Numbered from the stretch's first letter, positions 34,677 to 41,537 are shown. The stretch: DNA of 64,000 nucleotides from Escherichia coli (GCF_046105845.1 NZ_CP151004.1); one strand, 5' to 3'. Notes: generated by a model from the letters alone, not told the origin. Numbers and translations are program-made.

Positions 34677-35507
34677 ATGGGCGTCGTTAAGTTAGCTGAT
34701 TACAGGCCTCAACTGGAGGTCGTGGAGCATCGCGTGGCAGAACTCGAAGATGGCTACACTCGGACTGCAAACACACTGTTAGAAGCCGCCATGCTTTCTG
34801 GGCTTACTCTACATCAGTTACTGATTGTTATGGCTGTGTGGCGCAAGACATACGGTTACAACAAAAAAATAGATTGGATCGGAAACGAACAGTTCGCTGA
34901 ACTCACTGGCATGGCACCAACCAAATGTTCTACCGCCAAAAACGAGCTTATCAGAATGGGAGTTCTCATTCAGGTGGGGCGTCAAGTTGGTATGAATACA
35001 AACATTTCCGAGTGGAAAACGAAAGTTAACGGATTCGGTAAAACATTTACCAATTCGGTAAAACAAACCTTCACCAAATCGGTAAAAAGCAATTTACCGA
35101 ATCAGTCAAACACAAAAGACAATATACAAAAGACAATAAATACAAATACCCCCTTACCCCCTAACGGGGGCGGCGATGGGCAGGTTAAACCTGAACGTCG
35201 CAAGGCAGAACGAATCGACTATGAATCCTTCCTGAACGCCTACAACACCGAAGTCGGTGACAGACTGCCACACGCTGTTGCGGTCAACGAGAAACGCAAA
35301 CGCCGCCTGAAGAAAATCATCCCGCAACTGAAAACGCCAAACGTGGACGGTTTCAGAGCGTATGTCAGGGCGTTTGTACATCAGGCCAAGCCGTTTTACT
35401 TCGGAGACAACGACACTGGCTGGACGGCAGATTTTGATTACCTGCTGAGGGAAGATTCGTTAACGGGAGTACGGGAAGGGAAGTTTGCAGACAGGGGGAT
35501 TGCATGA
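34677..35507 (+). CDS. replication initiator (lambda O-like / P22 gene 18)
   Basis: 276-aa ORF immediately upstream of a DnaB-like helicase gene; N-terminal DNA-binding region. Confidence 0.7.
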
Positions 35508-36880
35508 GACAGGATATCGAAGCGAGCGTTATCGGTGGCCTGCTGATTGGTGGATTAACACCAACCGCCAGCGACGTTCTGGCAACGCTGGAGCCGGAAG
35601 CGTTTTCAATTCCGCTCTACCGGAAAGCCTTCGAGGTTATCCGCAAGCAGGCGAGAAACAGAAACCTAATCGACGCGCTGATGGTTGCAGAGGCGTGCGG
35701 AGAGGAGCATTTCACGTCAATCCTGATGACCAGCAAGAACTGCCCGAGTGCCGCAAACCTGAAGGGATATGCTGGAATGGTCGCGGATAACTATCACCGC
35801 CGTCTGGTGCTGGAAATCATGGACGAAATGCGTGAACCAATTCAGAGCGGAACCATCGACGCATCGAGTCAGGCGATGGACGAGCTGGTAAAGCGTCTTT
35901 CAGCCATCAGAAAGCCACGTGACGAGGTAAAACCTGTACGGTTAGGGGAAATCATCACCGACTACACTGACACGCTTGACAGGCGTCTGAGGAACGGAGA
36001 AGAGTCAGATACCCTGAAGACCGGAATCGAAGAACTTGATGCCATCACCGGAGGGATGAACGCGGAAGACCTGGTGATAATCGCTGCTCGTCCTGGTATG
36101 GGGAAAACCGAGCTGGCGCTGAAGATTGCCGAAGGCGTTGCAAGCCGCGTTATTCCTGGTTCTGACGTCCGGCGCGGGGTATTGATTTTCTCAATGGAAA
36201 TGAGCGCATTGCAGATTGCAGAGCGAAGCATTGCCAACGCCGGGAGGATGTCGGTTAGCGTACTGCGAAATCCTGCATCGATGGATGACGAAGGCTGGGC
36301 GCGTGTTGCTAACGGCATGAGTCAGCTTGCAGATTTGGATGTATGGGTAGTCGATGCCTCGCGGTTATCGGTAGAAGAAATTCGCTCAATCGCAGAGCGG
36401 CACAAACAGGAAAATCCAAACCTGTCACTCATCATGGCGGATTATCTTGGCCTGATTGAGAAGCCGAAAGCAGACCGCAACGACCTCGCAATTGCTCACA
36501 TCTCAGGAAGCCTGAAGGCGATGGCGAAAGACCTGAAAACGCCTGTTATCTCCCTAAGTCAGCTTTCGCGCGATGTTGAGAAGCGACCAAACAAACGCCC
36601 GACAAACGCAGATTTGCGTGATTCAGGAAGCATTGAGCAGGACGCAGACTCAATCATCATGCTCTATCGGGAAGCGGTATATGACGAGAACAGTAGCGCC
36701 GCGCCATTTGCTGAAATCATCGTGACGAAAAACCGTTTTGGCTCACTTGGTACGGTTTACCAGCGGTTCTGTAACGGACACTTTGTTGCATGTGACCAGG
36801 ATGAAGCCAGACAGATTTGCACAGCATCAAATGCACCTGCTGCGCGTGGCAGACGATATGCACAAGGGGCGGACGTATGA
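35504..36880 (+). CDS. replicative DNA helicase (DnaB family, P22 gene 12-like)
   Basis: 458-aa ORF with Walker A ([12 protein letters not shown]) and DnaB C-terminal motifs. Confidence 0.85.
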
Positions 36881-36905: not shown

Positions 36906-36936
36906 AGGCCTGCTGGTAATCGCAGGCCTTTTTATT
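36906..36936 (+). terminator. rho-independent terminator after the replication genes
   Basis: AGGCCTGC-TGGTAATC-GCAGGCCT hairpin followed by a T-run. Confidence 0.6.
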
Positions 36937-36953: not shown

Positions 36954-37394
36954 ATGAAAAAACTAACCTTTGAAATTCGATCTCCAGCACATCAGCAAAA
37001 CGCTATTCACGCGGTACAGCAAATTCTTCCAGACCCAACCAAACCAATCGTAGTAACCATTCAGGAACGCAACCGCAGCTTAGACCAGAATCGAAAGCTT
37101 TGGGCTTGCCTTGGTGACGTCTCTCGTCAGGTTGAATGGCATGGTCGCTGGCTGGATGCAGAAAGCTGGAAGTGTGTGTTTACCGCAGCATTAAAGCAGC
37201 AGGACGTTGTTCCTAACCTTGCCGGGAATGGCTTTGTGGTAATAGGCCAGTCAACCAGCAGGATGCGTGTAGGCGAATTTGCGGAGCTATTAGAGCTTAT
37301 ACAGGCATTCGGTACAGAGCGTGGCGTTAAGTGGTCAGACGAAGCGCGACTGGCTCTGGAGTGGAAAGCAAGATGGGGAGACAGGGCGGCATGA
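36954..37394 (+). CDS. ninB: NinB recombination protein
   Basis: 146-aa product [23 protein letters not shown]... matches the recalled NinB family. Confidence 0.8.
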
Positions 37395-37567
37395 GGCGAC
37401 AGCGACGAAGTATCACCGACATCATCTGCGAAAACTGCAAATACCTTCCAACGAAGCGCTCCAGAAATAAACGCAAGCCAATCCCAAAAGAATCTGACGT
37501 AAAAACCTTCAATTACACGGCTCACCTGTGGGATATCCGGTGGCTAAGACATCGTGCGAGGAAATGA
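37391..37567 (+). CDS. ninD: NinD-like small Zn-ribbon protein
   Basis: 58-aa ORF ([24 protein letters not shown]...) with ATGA overlap to ninB. Confidence 0.6.
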
Positions 37568-37971
37568 CAATGCTTTTAATTCAACTTGGATTTGGCCTTA
37601 GCATCAAAAAATGTCACATGTTTGGCGAGAAAGAGTCTCAACGAAAAATGGTGCTTATCAAGTTGCCATTTATCAGTATTTGTTGGCTAAACAGGGAGGC
37701 CGCAAATTATTTGTCTACATGCGCCAGAGCAGCATTTAACGACCCTGAGTGGTTTGTAGAAAACCATCACGCTGTTCGTCAGGCAAAGAGAAAGGCCGAA
37801 ACGACATACATGAAGGCGTATCGAAAAGCATGGAAAGAACACCGCGATCGATACCAACAAGACATGGAAAAGCTTGAATCAGAAAACATGGAATTAAGAC
37901 GAAAGCTCGGTGAAGCAAAACGAGACATTGATGCTTACAAGCGACTTTTTAATGGTGAAAGCCATGCTTAG
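37564..37971 (+). CDS. hypothetical nin-region protein (135 aa), hydrophobic N-terminus plus C-terminal coiled coil
   Basis: ORF coupled to the ninD stop (ATGA); C-terminal heptad-like [30 protein letters not shown]. Confidence 0.45.
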
Positions 37972-38140
37972 TCCATCCCAATCTCTTCAATACCAGAAAG
38001 AAAGCGTCGAGCGGGCTTTAACGTGCGCTAACTGCGGTCAGAAGCTGCATGTGCTTGAAGTTCACGTGTGCTCCGATTGCTGCGCAGAACTGATGAGCGA
38101 TCCGAATAGCTCAATGTACGAGGAAGAAGACGATGAGTGA
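37964..38140 (+). CDS. ninF: NinF
   Basis: 58-aa [39 protein letters not shown]... matches recalled lambda NinF. Confidence 0.7.
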   Translation: MLSPSQSLQYQKESVERALTCANCGQKLHVLEVHVCSDCCAELMSDPNSSMYEEEDDE

Positions 38141-38402
38141 TTTCGCTGAGCTTATTTCCTTCAAAAAAGACAGAGAAGAAATGCGGACTGAATCTGTCTA
38201 TTACGTTCAACACCGGAATAAACGCTCGGTGCTTGATCAGGAGTTGGTTATTACCGGAGACCTGGCATTCAGAACATATAAGGCCAGCATGGAAATGAAG
38301 GATTTCCCTAAATGTGGTTCTGAAAGAGAAGCCGCGTTAAAGCTGGCTGAGTGGATGCAGAGAATGGCTGCTGCAATTGAGAATTACTGGAGTGAACCAT
38401 AA
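38133..38402 (+). CDS. hypothetical nin-region protein (89 aa)
   Basis: ORF in the coupled nin gene string. Confidence 0.5.
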   Translation: MSDFAELISFKKDREEMRTESVYYVQHRNKRSVLDQELVITGDLAFRTYKASMEMKDFPKCGSEREAALKLAEWMQRMAAAIENYWSEP

Positions 38403-38692
38403 TGGCTAACCTACGCAAAGAAGCGCGCGGCAGAGAATGCCAGGTACGTATTTACGGCATATGCAATGGCAATCCTGAAACTACAGTTCTGGCACATTAC
38501 CGGATGGCTGGAATTTGCGGAACGGGAATGAAACCTGACGACCTGATTGGCGCATGGGCTTGTAGCGCGTGTCACGATGAAATCGACCGACGCACCCATA
38601 ATCTCGACAACAAAGACGCCAGACTTTACCACCTCGAAGGTGTGATCAGGACGCAGGCGATACTGCTGAAGGAGGGGAAGATTAAGCCATGA
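38402..38692 (+). CDS. hypothetical Cys/His-rich nin-region protein (96 aa)
   Basis: ORF with CxVRIxGxCNGNPETTVLAHYR...AWACSACHDEIDRR, suggesting a zinc-binding fold. Confidence 0.5.
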   Translation: MANLRKEARGRECQVRIYGICNGNPETTVLAHYRMAGICGTGMKPDDLIGAWACSACHDEIDRRTHNLDNKDARLYHLEGVIRTQAILLKEGKIKP

Positions 38693-39051
38693 ACGAATAT
38701 CAGTTTGTGCTTCCTTACCCGCCGTCGGTGAACACCTACTGGCGAAGACGGGGAAGCCAATACTACATCAGCGATAAAGGCCAGAAATACCGAAAAGACG
38801 TTCAGCAAATTATCCGCCAACTCAAGTTAGACATTTTCACCAAATCACGACTCCGCATCAAAGTCATCGCAGACGTTCCAGACTCACGCCGCCGCGACCT
38901 CGATAACATCCTGAAAGGTTTACTCGACTCCCTTATCCACGCCGGATTTGCGGAAGACGACGAGCAATTCGATGACATTCGCGTAATTCGTGGTGTGAAA
39001 GTACCAGGTGGAAGGCTTGGAATAAAAATCACCGAACTGGAGAACGCATGA
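38689..39051 (+). CDS. rusA: Holliday-junction resolvase RusA
   Basis: 120-aa ORF with RusA motifs (PDSRRRDLDNILKGLLDSL, GGRLGIKITEL). Confidence 0.85.
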   Translation: MNEYQFVLPYPPSVNTYWRRRGSQYYISDKGQKYRKDVQQIIRQLKLDIFTKSRLRIKVIADVPDSRRRDLDNILKGLLDSLIHAGFAEDDEQFDDIRVIRGVKVPGGRLGIKITELENA

Positions 39052-39236
39052 ACGCCACAATTCAAACGATACCAGAGCTTCTTATCCAGACACGAGGCAA
39101 TCAGACCGAAGTGGCAAGGATGCTTTCCTGCGCAAGAGGAACAGTGCTCAAGTACAACCGAGACAGCAAAGGCGAGCGTCATGTAATAGTTAACGGCGTC
39201 CTGATGGTCAAACAGGGCAAGAGGGGAAGACGATGA
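39048..39236 (+). CDS. ninH: NinH-like protein
   Basis: 62-aa ORF with GNQTEVARMLSCARGTVLKY resembling lambda NinH. Confidence 0.65.
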   Translation: MNATIQTIPELLIQTRGNQTEVARMLSCARGTVLKYNRDSKGERHVIVNGVLMVKQGKRGRR

Positions 39237-39856
39237 GACTCGAAAGCGTAGCTAAATTTCATTCGCCAAAAAGCCCGATGATGAGCGACTCACCACGGGC
39301 TACGGCTTCTGACTCTCTTTCCGGTACTGATGTGATGGCTGCTATGGGGATGGCACAATCACAGGCCGGATTCGGGATGGCTGCATTTTGCGGTAAGCAC
39401 GAACTCAGCCAGAACGACAAACAAAAGGCTATCAACTATCTGATGCAATTTGCACACAAGGTATCGGGGAAATACCGTGGTGTGGCAAAGCTCGAAGGAA
39501 ATACTAAGGCAAAGGTACTGCAAGTGCTCGCAATATTCGCTTATGCGGATTATTGCCGTAGTGCCGCGACGCCGGGTGCAAGATGCAGAGATTGCCACGG
39601 TACAGGCCGTGCGGTTGATATAGCCAAAACGGAGCAGTGGGGGAGAGTTGTTGAGAAAGAGTGCGGAAGATGCAAAGGTGTCGGCTATTCAAGAATGCCA
39701 GCAAGCGCCGCATATCGCGCTGTAACGATGCTAATCCCAAACCTTACCCAACCCACCTGGTCACGCACTGTTAAGCCGCTGTATGACGCTCTGGTGGTGC
39801 AATGCCACAAAGAAGAGTCAATCGCAGACAATATTTTGAATGCGGTCACACGTTAG
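39233..39856 (+). CDS. Q: late-gene antiterminator Q (lambda type)
   Basis: 207-aa ORF MRLESVAKFHSPKSPMMSDSPRATASDSLSG... near-identical to recalled lambda Q. Confidence 0.9.
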   Translation: MRLESVAKFHSPKSPMMSDSPRATASDSLSGTDVMAAMGMAQSQAGFGMAAFCGKHELSQNDKQKAINYLMQFAHKVSGKYRGVAKLEGNTKAKVLQVLAIFAYADYCRSAATPGARCRDCHGTGRAVDIAKTEQWGRVVEKECGRCKGVGYSRMPASAAYRAVTMLIPNLTQPTWSRTVKPLYDALVVQCHKEESIADNILNAVTR

Positions 39857-39898: not shown

Positions 39899-39927
39899 TT
39901 GACTTATTGAATAAAATTGGGTAAATT
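39899..39927 (+). promoter_or_regulatory. late promoter PR' with adjacent qut region
   Basis: TTGACT(-35)...TAAATT(-10), identical to the recalled lambda PR' core. Confidence 0.7.
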
Positions 39928-39961
39928 TGACTCAACGATGGATAAATGCACTCGTTAAATA

Positions 39962-39994
39962 AAGCCCTGAGTTAATAGCTCGGGGCTTTTTGCG
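39962..39994 (+). terminator. tR'-type terminator downstream of PR'
   Basis: AGCCCTGAG-TTAATAG-CTCGGGGCT hairpin followed by a T-run. Confidence 0.65.
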
Positions 39995-40289: not shown

Positions 40290-40613
40290 ATGAAGATGCC
40301 AGAAAAACATGACCTGTTAGCCGCCATTCTCGCGGCAAAGGAACAAGGCATCGGGGCAATCCTTGCGTTTGCAATGGCGTACCTTCGCGGCAGATATAAT
40401 GGCGGTGCGTTTACAAAAACAGTAATCGACGCAACGATGTGCGCCATTATCGCCTGGTTCATTCGTGACCTTCTCGACTTAGCAGGACTAAGTAGCAATC
40501 TCGCTTATATAACGAGCGTGTTCATCGGCTACATCGGTACTGACTCGATTGGTTCGCTTATCAAACGCTTCGCTGCTAAAAAAGCCGGAGTAGAAGATGG
40601 TGGAAATCAATAA
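40290..40613 (+). CDS. S: class I holin (lambda S type)
   Basis: 107-aa [23 protein letters not shown]... with the dual-start Met1/Met3 motif. Confidence 0.9.
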
Positions 40614-41073
40614 TCAACGTAAGGCGTTCCTCGATATGCTGGCGTGGTCAGAGGGAACAGATAACGGACGACAGAAAACCAGAAATCATGGTTATGACGT
40701 CATTGTTGGCGGAGAGCTATTCACTGATTACTCCGATCACCCTCGCAAACTTGTCACGCTAAATCCAAAACTCAAATCAACAGCAGCCGGGCGCTATCAG
40801 CTTCTTTCCCGTTGGTGGGATGCCTACCGTAAGCAGCTTGGCCTGAAAGACTTCTCTCCCAAAAGCCAGGACGCTGTTGCGCTGCAGCAGATTAAGGAAC
40901 GTGGCGCTTTGCCGATGATTGATCGCGGTGATATTCGTCAGGCTATCGACCGTTGCAGCAATATCTGGGCTTCACTGCCGGGCGCTGGCTATGGCCAGTT
41001 CGAGCATAAGGCTGACAGCCTGATTGCAAAATTCAAAGAAGTTGGCGGAACGGTCAGAGAGATTGAGGTATGA
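40597..41073 (+). CDS. R: endolysin (lambda R lytic transglycosylase)
   Basis: 158-aa [27 protein letters not shown]... Confidence 0.9.
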
Positions 41074-41537
41074 GCAGAGTAACCGCGATTATCTCAGCTC
41101 TGGTTATCTGCATCATCGTTTGCCTGTCATGGGCTGTTAATCATTACCGTGATAACGCCATCGCCTACAAAGAACAGCGTGATAAAAAAGTCAGTGAGCT
41201 GAAGCAGGCGACCGCCACCATTACTGACATGCAGCAACGCCAGCGTGCTGCTGATGCACTCGATGCTAAATACACGAAGGAGTTAGCTGATGCGAAAGCT
41301 GAAAATGATGCTCTTCGGCGCAAGCTTGATAATGGTGGCAGGGTGCTCGTCAAAGGAAAATGCCCTGTGCCATCCTCAGCCGAAACCTCCGGCGCCTCCG
41401 GCATGGGCAATGATGCCACCGTCGAACTCTCTCCAGTTGCTGGACGAAACGTTCTCGGTGTCCGGGACGGAATTATCCGCGACCAAACAGCACTGAGAAC
41501 GCTTCAGGAATACATCAGGACGCAATGCCTTCGATGA
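41070..41537 (+). CDS. Rz: i-spanin
   Basis: 155-aa ORF with N-terminal TM helix and coiled-coil periplasmic domain. Confidence 0.85.
41290..41496 (+). CDS. Rz1: o-spanin lipoprotein embedded in Rz (+1 frame)
   Basis: Embedded [24 protein letters not shown]... with lipobox and a Pro-rich segment. Confidence 0.75.

Follow-up and report, generated by a model that had tools for sequence, protein, structure and literature searches.

Positions 37564–38692 of a stretch of 64,000 nucleotides (nt) of Escherichia coli DNA (GCF_046105845.1 NZ_CP151004.1), which is called the window below, quite probably form a normal mosaic segment of the delayed-early (nin) operon of a lambdoid prophage. The order in this segment would be NinE, an optional cassette, NinF, a second optional cassette, YbcO and RusA. 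The first cassette would encode a soluble, dimeric protein of 133 amino acids (aa), here named ORF133 (from open reading frame, ORF; ORF135 when it is counted from an earlier ATG), and the gene for YbcO, a DUF1364 protein, lies beside that for the Holliday-junction resolvase RusA. A preliminary description of this DNA had presented the segment as a non-canonical nin region on account of an ORF of 135 codons and another of 96 codons. Both ORFs are present, the former at 37564–37971, as counted from the first ATG, and the latter at 38402–38692, directly upstream of rusA. The region is in effect unlike that of lambda, but its arrangement is not unusual among lambdoid phages, as phage ECP1 has the same NinE-ORF133-NinF-ORF89-YbcO-RusA-NinH-Q string with ~97% identity, the sole difference being a Dam methylase that it carries between ninB and ninE. 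The span also holds NinF and a conserved hypothetical protein of 89 aa, the latter absent from the preliminary description. The features of the segment are the following:

37391–37567, + strand: NinE, 58 aa (PF05322, E 7e-44, full length)
37558–37572, + strand: conserved junction GAGGAAATGACAATG, with a Shine-Dalgarno sequence and two ATGs, identical in the NinX-carrying phage 611R6
37570–37971, + strand: cassette gene for ORF133 (135 aa if the start is at 37564; phrog_1511, E 7.2e-80)
37964–38140, + strand: NinF, 58 aa, zinc-ribbon-like (PF05810, E 8e-14; junction alignment)
38133–38402, + strand: ORF89, 89 aa (phrog_1258, E 6e-38)
38402–38692, + strand: YbcO/DUF1364, 96 aa (PF07102, E 2.8e-44; phrog_131, 'HNH endonuclease')
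38689–39051, + strand: RusA Holliday-junction resolvase (PF05866, E 1e-16; phrog_34)

The gene for ORF133 is an optional cassette, that is, extra DNA between ninE and ninF. This was observed when the window, lambda and phage vB_EcoP-611R6 (611R6) were aligned together: ninE has a common 3′ end in the three sequences, as far as GAGGAA. Directly after the second ATG of GAGGAAATGACAATG, the window and 611R6 diverge completely, and they converge again at ATGCTTAG, an octamer that holds both the start of ninF and the stop of the cassette gene. In lambda, which has no cassette, GAGGAAATGACAATG aligns with GAGGAAAACAAGGTG, whose GTG is the start of NinF and corresponds to the second ATG (37570) of the junction in the window. 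Thus, the shared junctions and divergent interiors indicate that the ninE-ninF slot has three states: empty, as in lambda; occupied by NinX, as in 611R6 and P22-type phages; or occupied by ORF133, as in the window. It had been proposed in the preliminary description that the 58-aa ORF upstream is ninD and that ORF135 stands where lambda has the 60-aa ninE. Neither identification holds, as the match of the upstream ORF to the NinE profile covers its full length, its sequence is near-identical to that of lambda NinE, and lambda NinD is unrelated to it. Because ninE is present just upstream as a separate ORF, ORF133 does not replace it, and ORF135 has no match to the NinE hidden Markov model; its candidacy as a NinE replacement was consequently rejected. 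Beside these comparisons, it was observed that Salmonella phage SE1 encodes an intact NinE (2331–2507 of the SE1 sequence, L012) in a gap of its deposited annotation.

ORF135 sits in exactly the slot of NinX in P22-type phages and uses the same start-codon junction, which might suggest that it is a diverged or extended form of a named Nin protein (NinE, NinX, NinY or NinZ). This reading is very improbable. The cassette of 611R6 is a genuine P22-type NinX (PF10765, E 4e-22), and NinX of P22 is a positional analogue of ORF133: it shares both the Shine-Dalgarno/ATG junction upstream and, on the ninF side, the ATGCTTAG junction. Nevertheless, it has 119 aa, lacks a coiled coil and shares no sequence similarity with ORF133. 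The comparison with NinX that had been suggested in the preliminary description gave no BLASTP alignment at E≤100, and PF10765 matches NinX and not ORF135, so that identity with NinX was rejected; homology to any named Nin protein was likewise not found. When 1.8 and 5.8 billion proteins were searched with profiles, unnamed relatives only were returned, and Pfam, PHROGs and NCBIfam gave no match to NinY or NinZ, with which no direct comparison was made.

There are two candidate initiation codons for the cassette gene, an ATG at 37564, which overlaps the TGA of NinE (ATGA at 37564–37567), and the ATG at 37570. The real start is probably the latter, which gives a protein of 133 aa, and the former is less likely. 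This is because most database homologs begin at the second site (MLLIQ), a GAGGA Shine-Dalgarno sequence lies 8 nt upstream of it, and it is aligned in the shared junction with the GTG of lambda NinF and the ATG of NinX. NCBI annotations of the homologs use both starts. The choice bears on the overlapping stop and start codons by which, according to the preliminary description, the genes are coupled. Stops and starts do overlap or abut along the whole gene string of the span: the TAG of ORF135 sits 8 nt within NinF, the TGA of NinF sits 8 nt within ORF89, the ORF89/YbcO junction is TAATG (38400–38404), and the stop of YbcO overlaps the start of RusA as ATGA (38689–38692). However, with the probable start at 37570, 2 nt separate the gene from the stop of NinE, without overlap at this junction. 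The numbering of residues in ORF133 below is that of the 133-aa protein.

In effect, ORF133 is a widespread protein of a small phage family that has remained without a name. Residues 3–135 of ORF135 match positions 1–133 of the 133 positions of phrog_1511. The family is found in 58 phage records, including HK629, HK630, mEpX2, ECP1, VT1-Sakai and other Shiga toxin (Stx) phages, P22-like Salmonella phages and PY54, and ORF133 is present in 381 of 5426 complete E. coli genomes (~7%). Direct homologs are, for instance, HK629 gp55, mEpX2_053, ECP1 gp08, VT1-Sakai H0039 and PY54 ORF53. The homologs in coliphages are 90–93% identical to ORF133, and both the coliphage and the Salmonella copies occupy the same ninE-ninF slot; the PY54 copy is 40% identical, and homologs in PY54 and metagenomic phages extend down to 22–40% identity. 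An exhaustive phmmer search of 1.84 billion cluster representatives gave only 37 sequences at E≤1e-3, and all the genuine ones have 124–141 aa. Two apparent multi-repeat matches (P0092 and P0107) were discarded as low-complexity translations of eukaryotic repeats with incoherent Pfam noise. All database homologs are labelled 'hypothetical', and a profile search of 5.8 billion proteins gave no named relative and no domain fusion except obvious prophage-deletion chimeras. Searches of Pfam, NCBIfam and PADLOC with ORF135 gave nothing beyond sub-threshold coiled-coil noise (CENP-F, LmuB, GerR), a Pfam scan of 31 family N-terminal domains taken individually gave no match, and sequence and profile searches of the PDB with ORF133 gave only coiled-coil or basic leucine zipper (bZIP) noise. 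Nothing on the family was found in the literature on ninX/ninE/ninF, the nin region, phrog_1511, HK629 or mEpX2.

The position of the gene in an early operon appears from the sequences to be kept in the distant relatives. For instance, one of them (L011) has the order Cro, CII-like, replication genes, ORF130 (the homolog), NinB, YbcO and holin, and in another (L010) the homolog is flanked by a ParB-like gene and a helicase. In PY54, it is found among Lar-like, exonuclease and Dam genes, and in Tbat2_3 it directly follows a Dam methylase. One copy sits on a contig of 400 kb.

Comparison of the copies indicates that the gene is under purifying selection, as the ratio of nonsynonymous to synonymous rates (dN/dS) is 0.13–0.16 against the Salmonella phage SE1 copy, at a dS of ~0.85. 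There are also signs that might be expected of a chance ORF or of a decaying prophage pseudogene. In the closest comparison, between window positions 37570–37800 and HK629 positions 2507–2737 (L002), the pairwise dN/dS is 0.49, and some database copies are frameshifted or truncated. Two of these (P0060 and P0080) carry a peptide from an alternative frame (window 37611–37739, +3 frame) fused to the normal C-terminal half, and H-19B and AU5Stx1 match ORF133 in two pieces. Such frameshifts probably reflect errors of sequencing or the decay of prophage copies. The pseudogene reading is nevertheless the least probable of all those considered here, as the frame is intact in 58 phages, including the plaque-forming HK629, mEpX2 and ECP1, the dN/dS is low where the divergence is meaningful, length and motifs are kept down to 22% identity, and the structure is predicted with confidence. 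The 10 substitutions that separate ORF133 of the window from the HK629 protein all fall within the N-terminal 77 residues, while the zipper half is identical; from the window to HK629/mEpX2, the changes are L6P, C15G, L29S, K31Q, C38L, A45T, L48W, S49Y, E60D and E77N. This N-terminal divergence could reflect a recombinant allele of the N-domain, shared with one other copy (P0001), or relaxed or diversifying selection on this domain.

The predicted architecture of ORF133 is that of a small β-rich domain followed by a long helix. AlphaFold2, run with the alignment of 37 sequences, gave a model with a mean predicted local distance difference test (pLDDT) score of 88. In this model, residues 2–6, 11–16, 26–31 and 35–40 form strands, and residues 42–57 (16 residues), 59–65 (short) and 67–129 (63 residues, pLDDT 93–97) form helices. 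The N-domain modelled alone gave a pLDDT of 88.6 and a predicted template modelling (pTM) score of 0.64. The protein can be divided as follows:

37570–37764, + strand: ORF133 N-domain, aa 1–65, with four β strands, a 16-residue helix and a short helix, ending in D58-P-x-W61-x3-N65
37768–37863, + strand: basic first half of the long helix, aa 67–98, net charge ~+6, opening with the conserved A-V-R-x-A-K-R-K-A
37864–37950, + strand: leucine-zipper-like heptads, aa 99–127, with Asn106 at 'a', in a register kept across the family

The most conserved residues of the family lie at the junction between the domain and the helix, D58-P-x-W61-x3-N65-x2-A-V-R-x-A-K-R-K-A. The first 33 residues after N65 carry a net charge of +3 to +9 in most members. 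The leucine-zipper-like C-terminus mentioned in the preliminary description is real, with M99, N106, L113, I120 and F127 at the 'a' positions and L102, L109, A116 and Y123 at the 'd' positions. The register of the heptads relative to N65 and an ENxxL motif, whose Asn is at 'a', are conserved across 37 family members; close relatives have the motif at N65+41, and distant ones have it at N65+48, a shift of exactly one heptad. In zippers of the GCN4 type, parallel dimers are known to be favoured when a buried Asn occupies 'a'. ORF133 has at least four heptads with hydrophobic 'a' and 'd' residues and the polar Asn at 'a', which is the pattern of a parallel dimeric leucine zipper. Thus, the protein would form a soluble, parallel dimer through its C-terminal GCN4-like zipper, and this dimer would present two basic helices and two small β-rich N-domains.

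The same preliminary description had noted a hydrophobic N-terminus, from which a small membrane protein could be imagined, with an N-terminal anchor and a cytoplasmic coiled coil, acting, for instance, as an exclusion or lysis-timing factor. Hydrophobicity is indeed present locally, in the first 12 residues and in residues 29–40, where Kyte-Doolittle means over 11 residues reach 2.2. However, the highest mean over a 19-residue window is 1.12, when the usual threshold for a membrane segment is 1.6, and the hydrophobic runs of 5–6 residues are interrupted by Gly, Lys and Ser. In addition, AlphaFold packs four β strands of this part (pLDDT 84–91) against a helix, neither a lipobox nor a signal-peptide pattern is present, and most homologs have Gly in place of C15. 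A membrane protein is hence hardly to be expected, and both an integral membrane protein and a lipoprotein were rejected as candidates for ORF135; ORF133 is predicted to be soluble, with no transmembrane segment.

The combination of a basic helix and a parallel-type heptad zipper with Asn at 'a' is shared with bZIP factors such as GCN4 and C/EBP, and N65-x2-A68-V69-x2-A72-K73 of ORF133 resembles the base-contacting signature of these factors, N-x2-A-A-x2-(S/C)-R. The family profile also gave weak matches in the PDB (E 0.015–0.1) to GCN4, C/EBP, HY5, ATF and Fos, mostly over the zipper; the Pfam models bZIP_1 and bZIP_2 did not match ORF133 at E≤0.1. In the bZIP signature of GCN4, N-x7-(R/K) is followed by the first zipper Leu 9 residues later, which is 18 after the Asn, in one continuous helix. 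N65 and K73 of ORF133 agree with N-x7-K, but the residue at +18, A83, does not occupy a 'd' position; the residues at 'd' are M81, W88, Y95 and L102. The distance from N65 to L102 is 37 residues, and the register is +2 instead of the +4 of GCN4, so that N65 is two residues, or ~200 degrees, out of the bZIP register. Moreover, AlphaFold breaks the helix right after N65, at residue 66, in a manner that resembles an N-cap, and, unlike bZIP factors, ORF133 has a folded domain of 65 residues ahead of the basic helix. A true bZIP was rejected on the register, the helix break and the family models. Thus, the resemblance is an architectural analogy and not membership.

What this dimer does can be proposed only tentatively. 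It would bind nucleic acid, either DNA or a recombination or replication intermediate, as a non-essential accessory factor; the nin region of lambda is dispensable (nin5). Binding of nucleic acid in the replication and recombination setting of the nin operon is possible, although we give it less than an even chance. Several observations weigh against it. The only links between ORF133 and DNA are its charge and its architecture, and the basic segment is near-neutral in four family members (P0094, P0102, P0108 and P0109). The N-domain matched no solved fold and no recognisable DNA-binding fold. A conserved partner gene was sought near the homologs and not found, save for ninF in the enterobacterial copies, where its proximity follows from the cassette junction; the upstream neighbours of the distant homologs are unrelated to one another and to NinB.

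Some of these same observations would agree with a role of ORF133 in host takeover or counter-defence, in which the zipper dimer binds and inhibits a host protein (an acidic nuclease, a component of a restriction or defence system, or a division or transcription factor) and not nucleic acid. ORF133 is encoded by a single-gene cassette that is optional and can be swapped, and no partner gene is conserved with it, as is typical of accessory or 'moron'-type genes. The PY54 homolog has a Lar-like restriction-alleviation gene on one side and a Dam methylase on the other, the Tbat2_3 homolog directly follows a methylase of this kind, not all members of the family are basic in this segment, and the fold of the N-domain is unmatched. 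Nevertheless, ORF133 has no match in PADLOC and no similarity to known anti-defence proteins, neighbourhood is weak evidence in mosaic phages, and the most conserved motif (DPxW...N..AVRxAKRKA) is the start of the basic helix, which fits the binding of a polyanion at least equally well. We regard this role as rather unlikely, yet worth serious consideration beside the binding of nucleic acid. The remaining probability belongs to some other function, or to none that is discernible under laboratory conditions.

In the preliminary description, neither of the two proteins had an assignable function. This holds for ORF133, but the 96-aa protein belongs, by its sequence, to the YbcO/DUF1364 family, and this agrees with the grounds set out there for abandoning the claim, a straightforward homology to named nin proteins. 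The match to PF07102 scores 149.5 bits, with a cut-off of 29.9, and places residues 3–92 on profile positions 2–91 of 92. YbcO of the E. coli DLP12 prophage (PDB 3G27) has the same length, occupies the same place directly upstream of rusA and presents only allelic differences: 67 of 95 residues are identical (71%), with no gaps and an E of 3.5e-40. All the Cys and His residues C13, C21, H32, C39, C54, C57, H58 and H66 are conserved between the two proteins. Their pattern is C13-x7-C21 ... H32 ... C39 ... C54-x2-C57-H58, so that the CxxCH motif reported earlier is real and the first spacing, which had been given as x6, was miscounted by one. The prophage context agrees with this assignment, as the stop of ybcO overlaps the start of rusA and NinH and Q follow downstream. 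The position directly upstream of rusA, with overlapping ATGA, is shared by the window, 611R6, HK629, mEpX2, ECP1 and Tbat2_3. The YbcO allele is found in 956 of 5426 complete E. coli genomes, at the sensitivity of megablast, and is annotated as 'DUF1364 domain-containing protein'.

From the 3G27 structure, Jablonska et al. 2017 (PMC5714182) assigned DUF1364, together with DUF968, to group 7 of the His-Me finger superfamily. The usual neighbours of DUF1364 are RusA, Q and antirepressor genes, and a role in recombination or repair has been proposed (PMC5714182). By analogy with zinc-containing HNH domains, the ligands of a structural zinc are most likely C13, C21, C54 and C57, and the HNH-type histidines would be H32 and H58. 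At the level of sequence, no match to other HNH structures was found. YbcO would be a zinc-stabilised His-Me finger protein that binds, nicks or cuts DNA intermediates in the pathway of the adjacent RusA. Weighing against this proposal, a search of the literature found no published demonstration of nuclease activity or of any other biochemical activity of YbcO.

Between ninF and ybcO lies ORF89 (38133–38402, + strand), a conserved hypothetical protein for which no match was found in Pfam or the PDB. It is 97–99% identical in mEp235, ECP1, 611R6 and P22-like Salmonella phages, and has relatives at 35–44% identity in P1-like phages, N15 (gp44/45 region), phiKO2 and HK225. In HK629 and mEpX2, the slot of ORF89 is occupied by Roi, an antirepressor-like protein of the KilAC type, and thus the interval between ninF and ybcO appears to be a second cassette position. 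A further observation concerns the junction between ninB and ninE, where ECP1, APEC_AN-25 and others, which are the nearest relatives, have a gene of ~525 bp for a DNA N-6-adenine methyltransferase (892–1419 of the ECP1 sequence, L014). The window lacks this gene at its ninB-ninE junction (37394/37391), which marks another optional cassette site.

The segment belongs to the early-right arm of a lambdoid prophage. This arm corresponds to 34.6–40 kb of the window, on the + strand, and includes the following other features:

34677–35507, + strand: O-like replication protein (PF04492)
35504–36880, + strand: DnaB-like helicase
36906–36929, + strand: terminator-like hairpin between the helicase gene and ninB, in the position of lambda tR2
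36954–37394, + strand: NinB
39048–39236, + strand: NinH
39233–39856, + strand: Q
39899–39927, + strand: PR'-like promoter downstream of Q (TTGACT-17-TAAATT)
39961–39989, + strand: strong tR'-like terminator downstream of Q, with a 13-bp stem

The promoter and terminator after Q have the same layout as PR'/6S/tR' of lambda. No promoter- or terminator-like sites were found between the hairpin at 36906–36929 and the end of Q, and consequently the segment is probably read from PR through the tR2-like terminator. By the lambda paradigm, the gene string probably corresponds to a single delayed-early operon that depends on antitermination, and the genes would be translated as a coupled string.

Other parts of the window were also observed. 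The sizes of the ORFs in its first ~27 kb suggest ordinary chromosomal genes, and a search for tRNA genes in the window found none. After the nin region, there are lysis genes (holin, 40290–40613; lysozyme, 40597–41073; Rz-like, 41070–41537), and just downstream of them, at a typical moron position, an ORF of 161 aa (41881–42366, + strand) with a MUG113/T5orf172 (GIY-YIG-like) domain (E 4e-13 and 1e-9). The lysis region is followed on the + strand by an apparent P22-like morphogenesis block, with ORFs of, for instance, 470, 711, 423, 472, 471, 613 and 779 aa, within the part of the window that runs from 27000 to 63400.

Both of the proteins studied are ordinary cargo of lambda-like prophages, already known and, as sequences, nothing new: their genes have been sequenced hundreds of times, one of the proteins is represented by a crystal structure, and the other figures among the known 'conserved hypothetical' proteins. 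The gains are in annotation, as the 58-aa ORF is NinE and not NinD, the ninE-ninF slot appears to have three states, and the probable start of ORF133 is at 37570. A broader proposal, which we consider quite unlikely, is that phrog_1511 represents an unrecognised class of phage DNA-binding proteins, dimers with a basic helix, a leucine zipper and a new β-rich N-terminal fold, which would act on replication or recombination intermediates or regulate the delayed-early programme in lambdoid, N15/PY54-like and some jumbo-size phages. In any case, phrog_1511 is a tractable uncharacterised family, compact and confidently modelled, with an unmatched N-domain and a basic zipper, and its carriers include Stx phages as well as the plaque-forming laboratory phages HK629, mEpX2 and ECP1.

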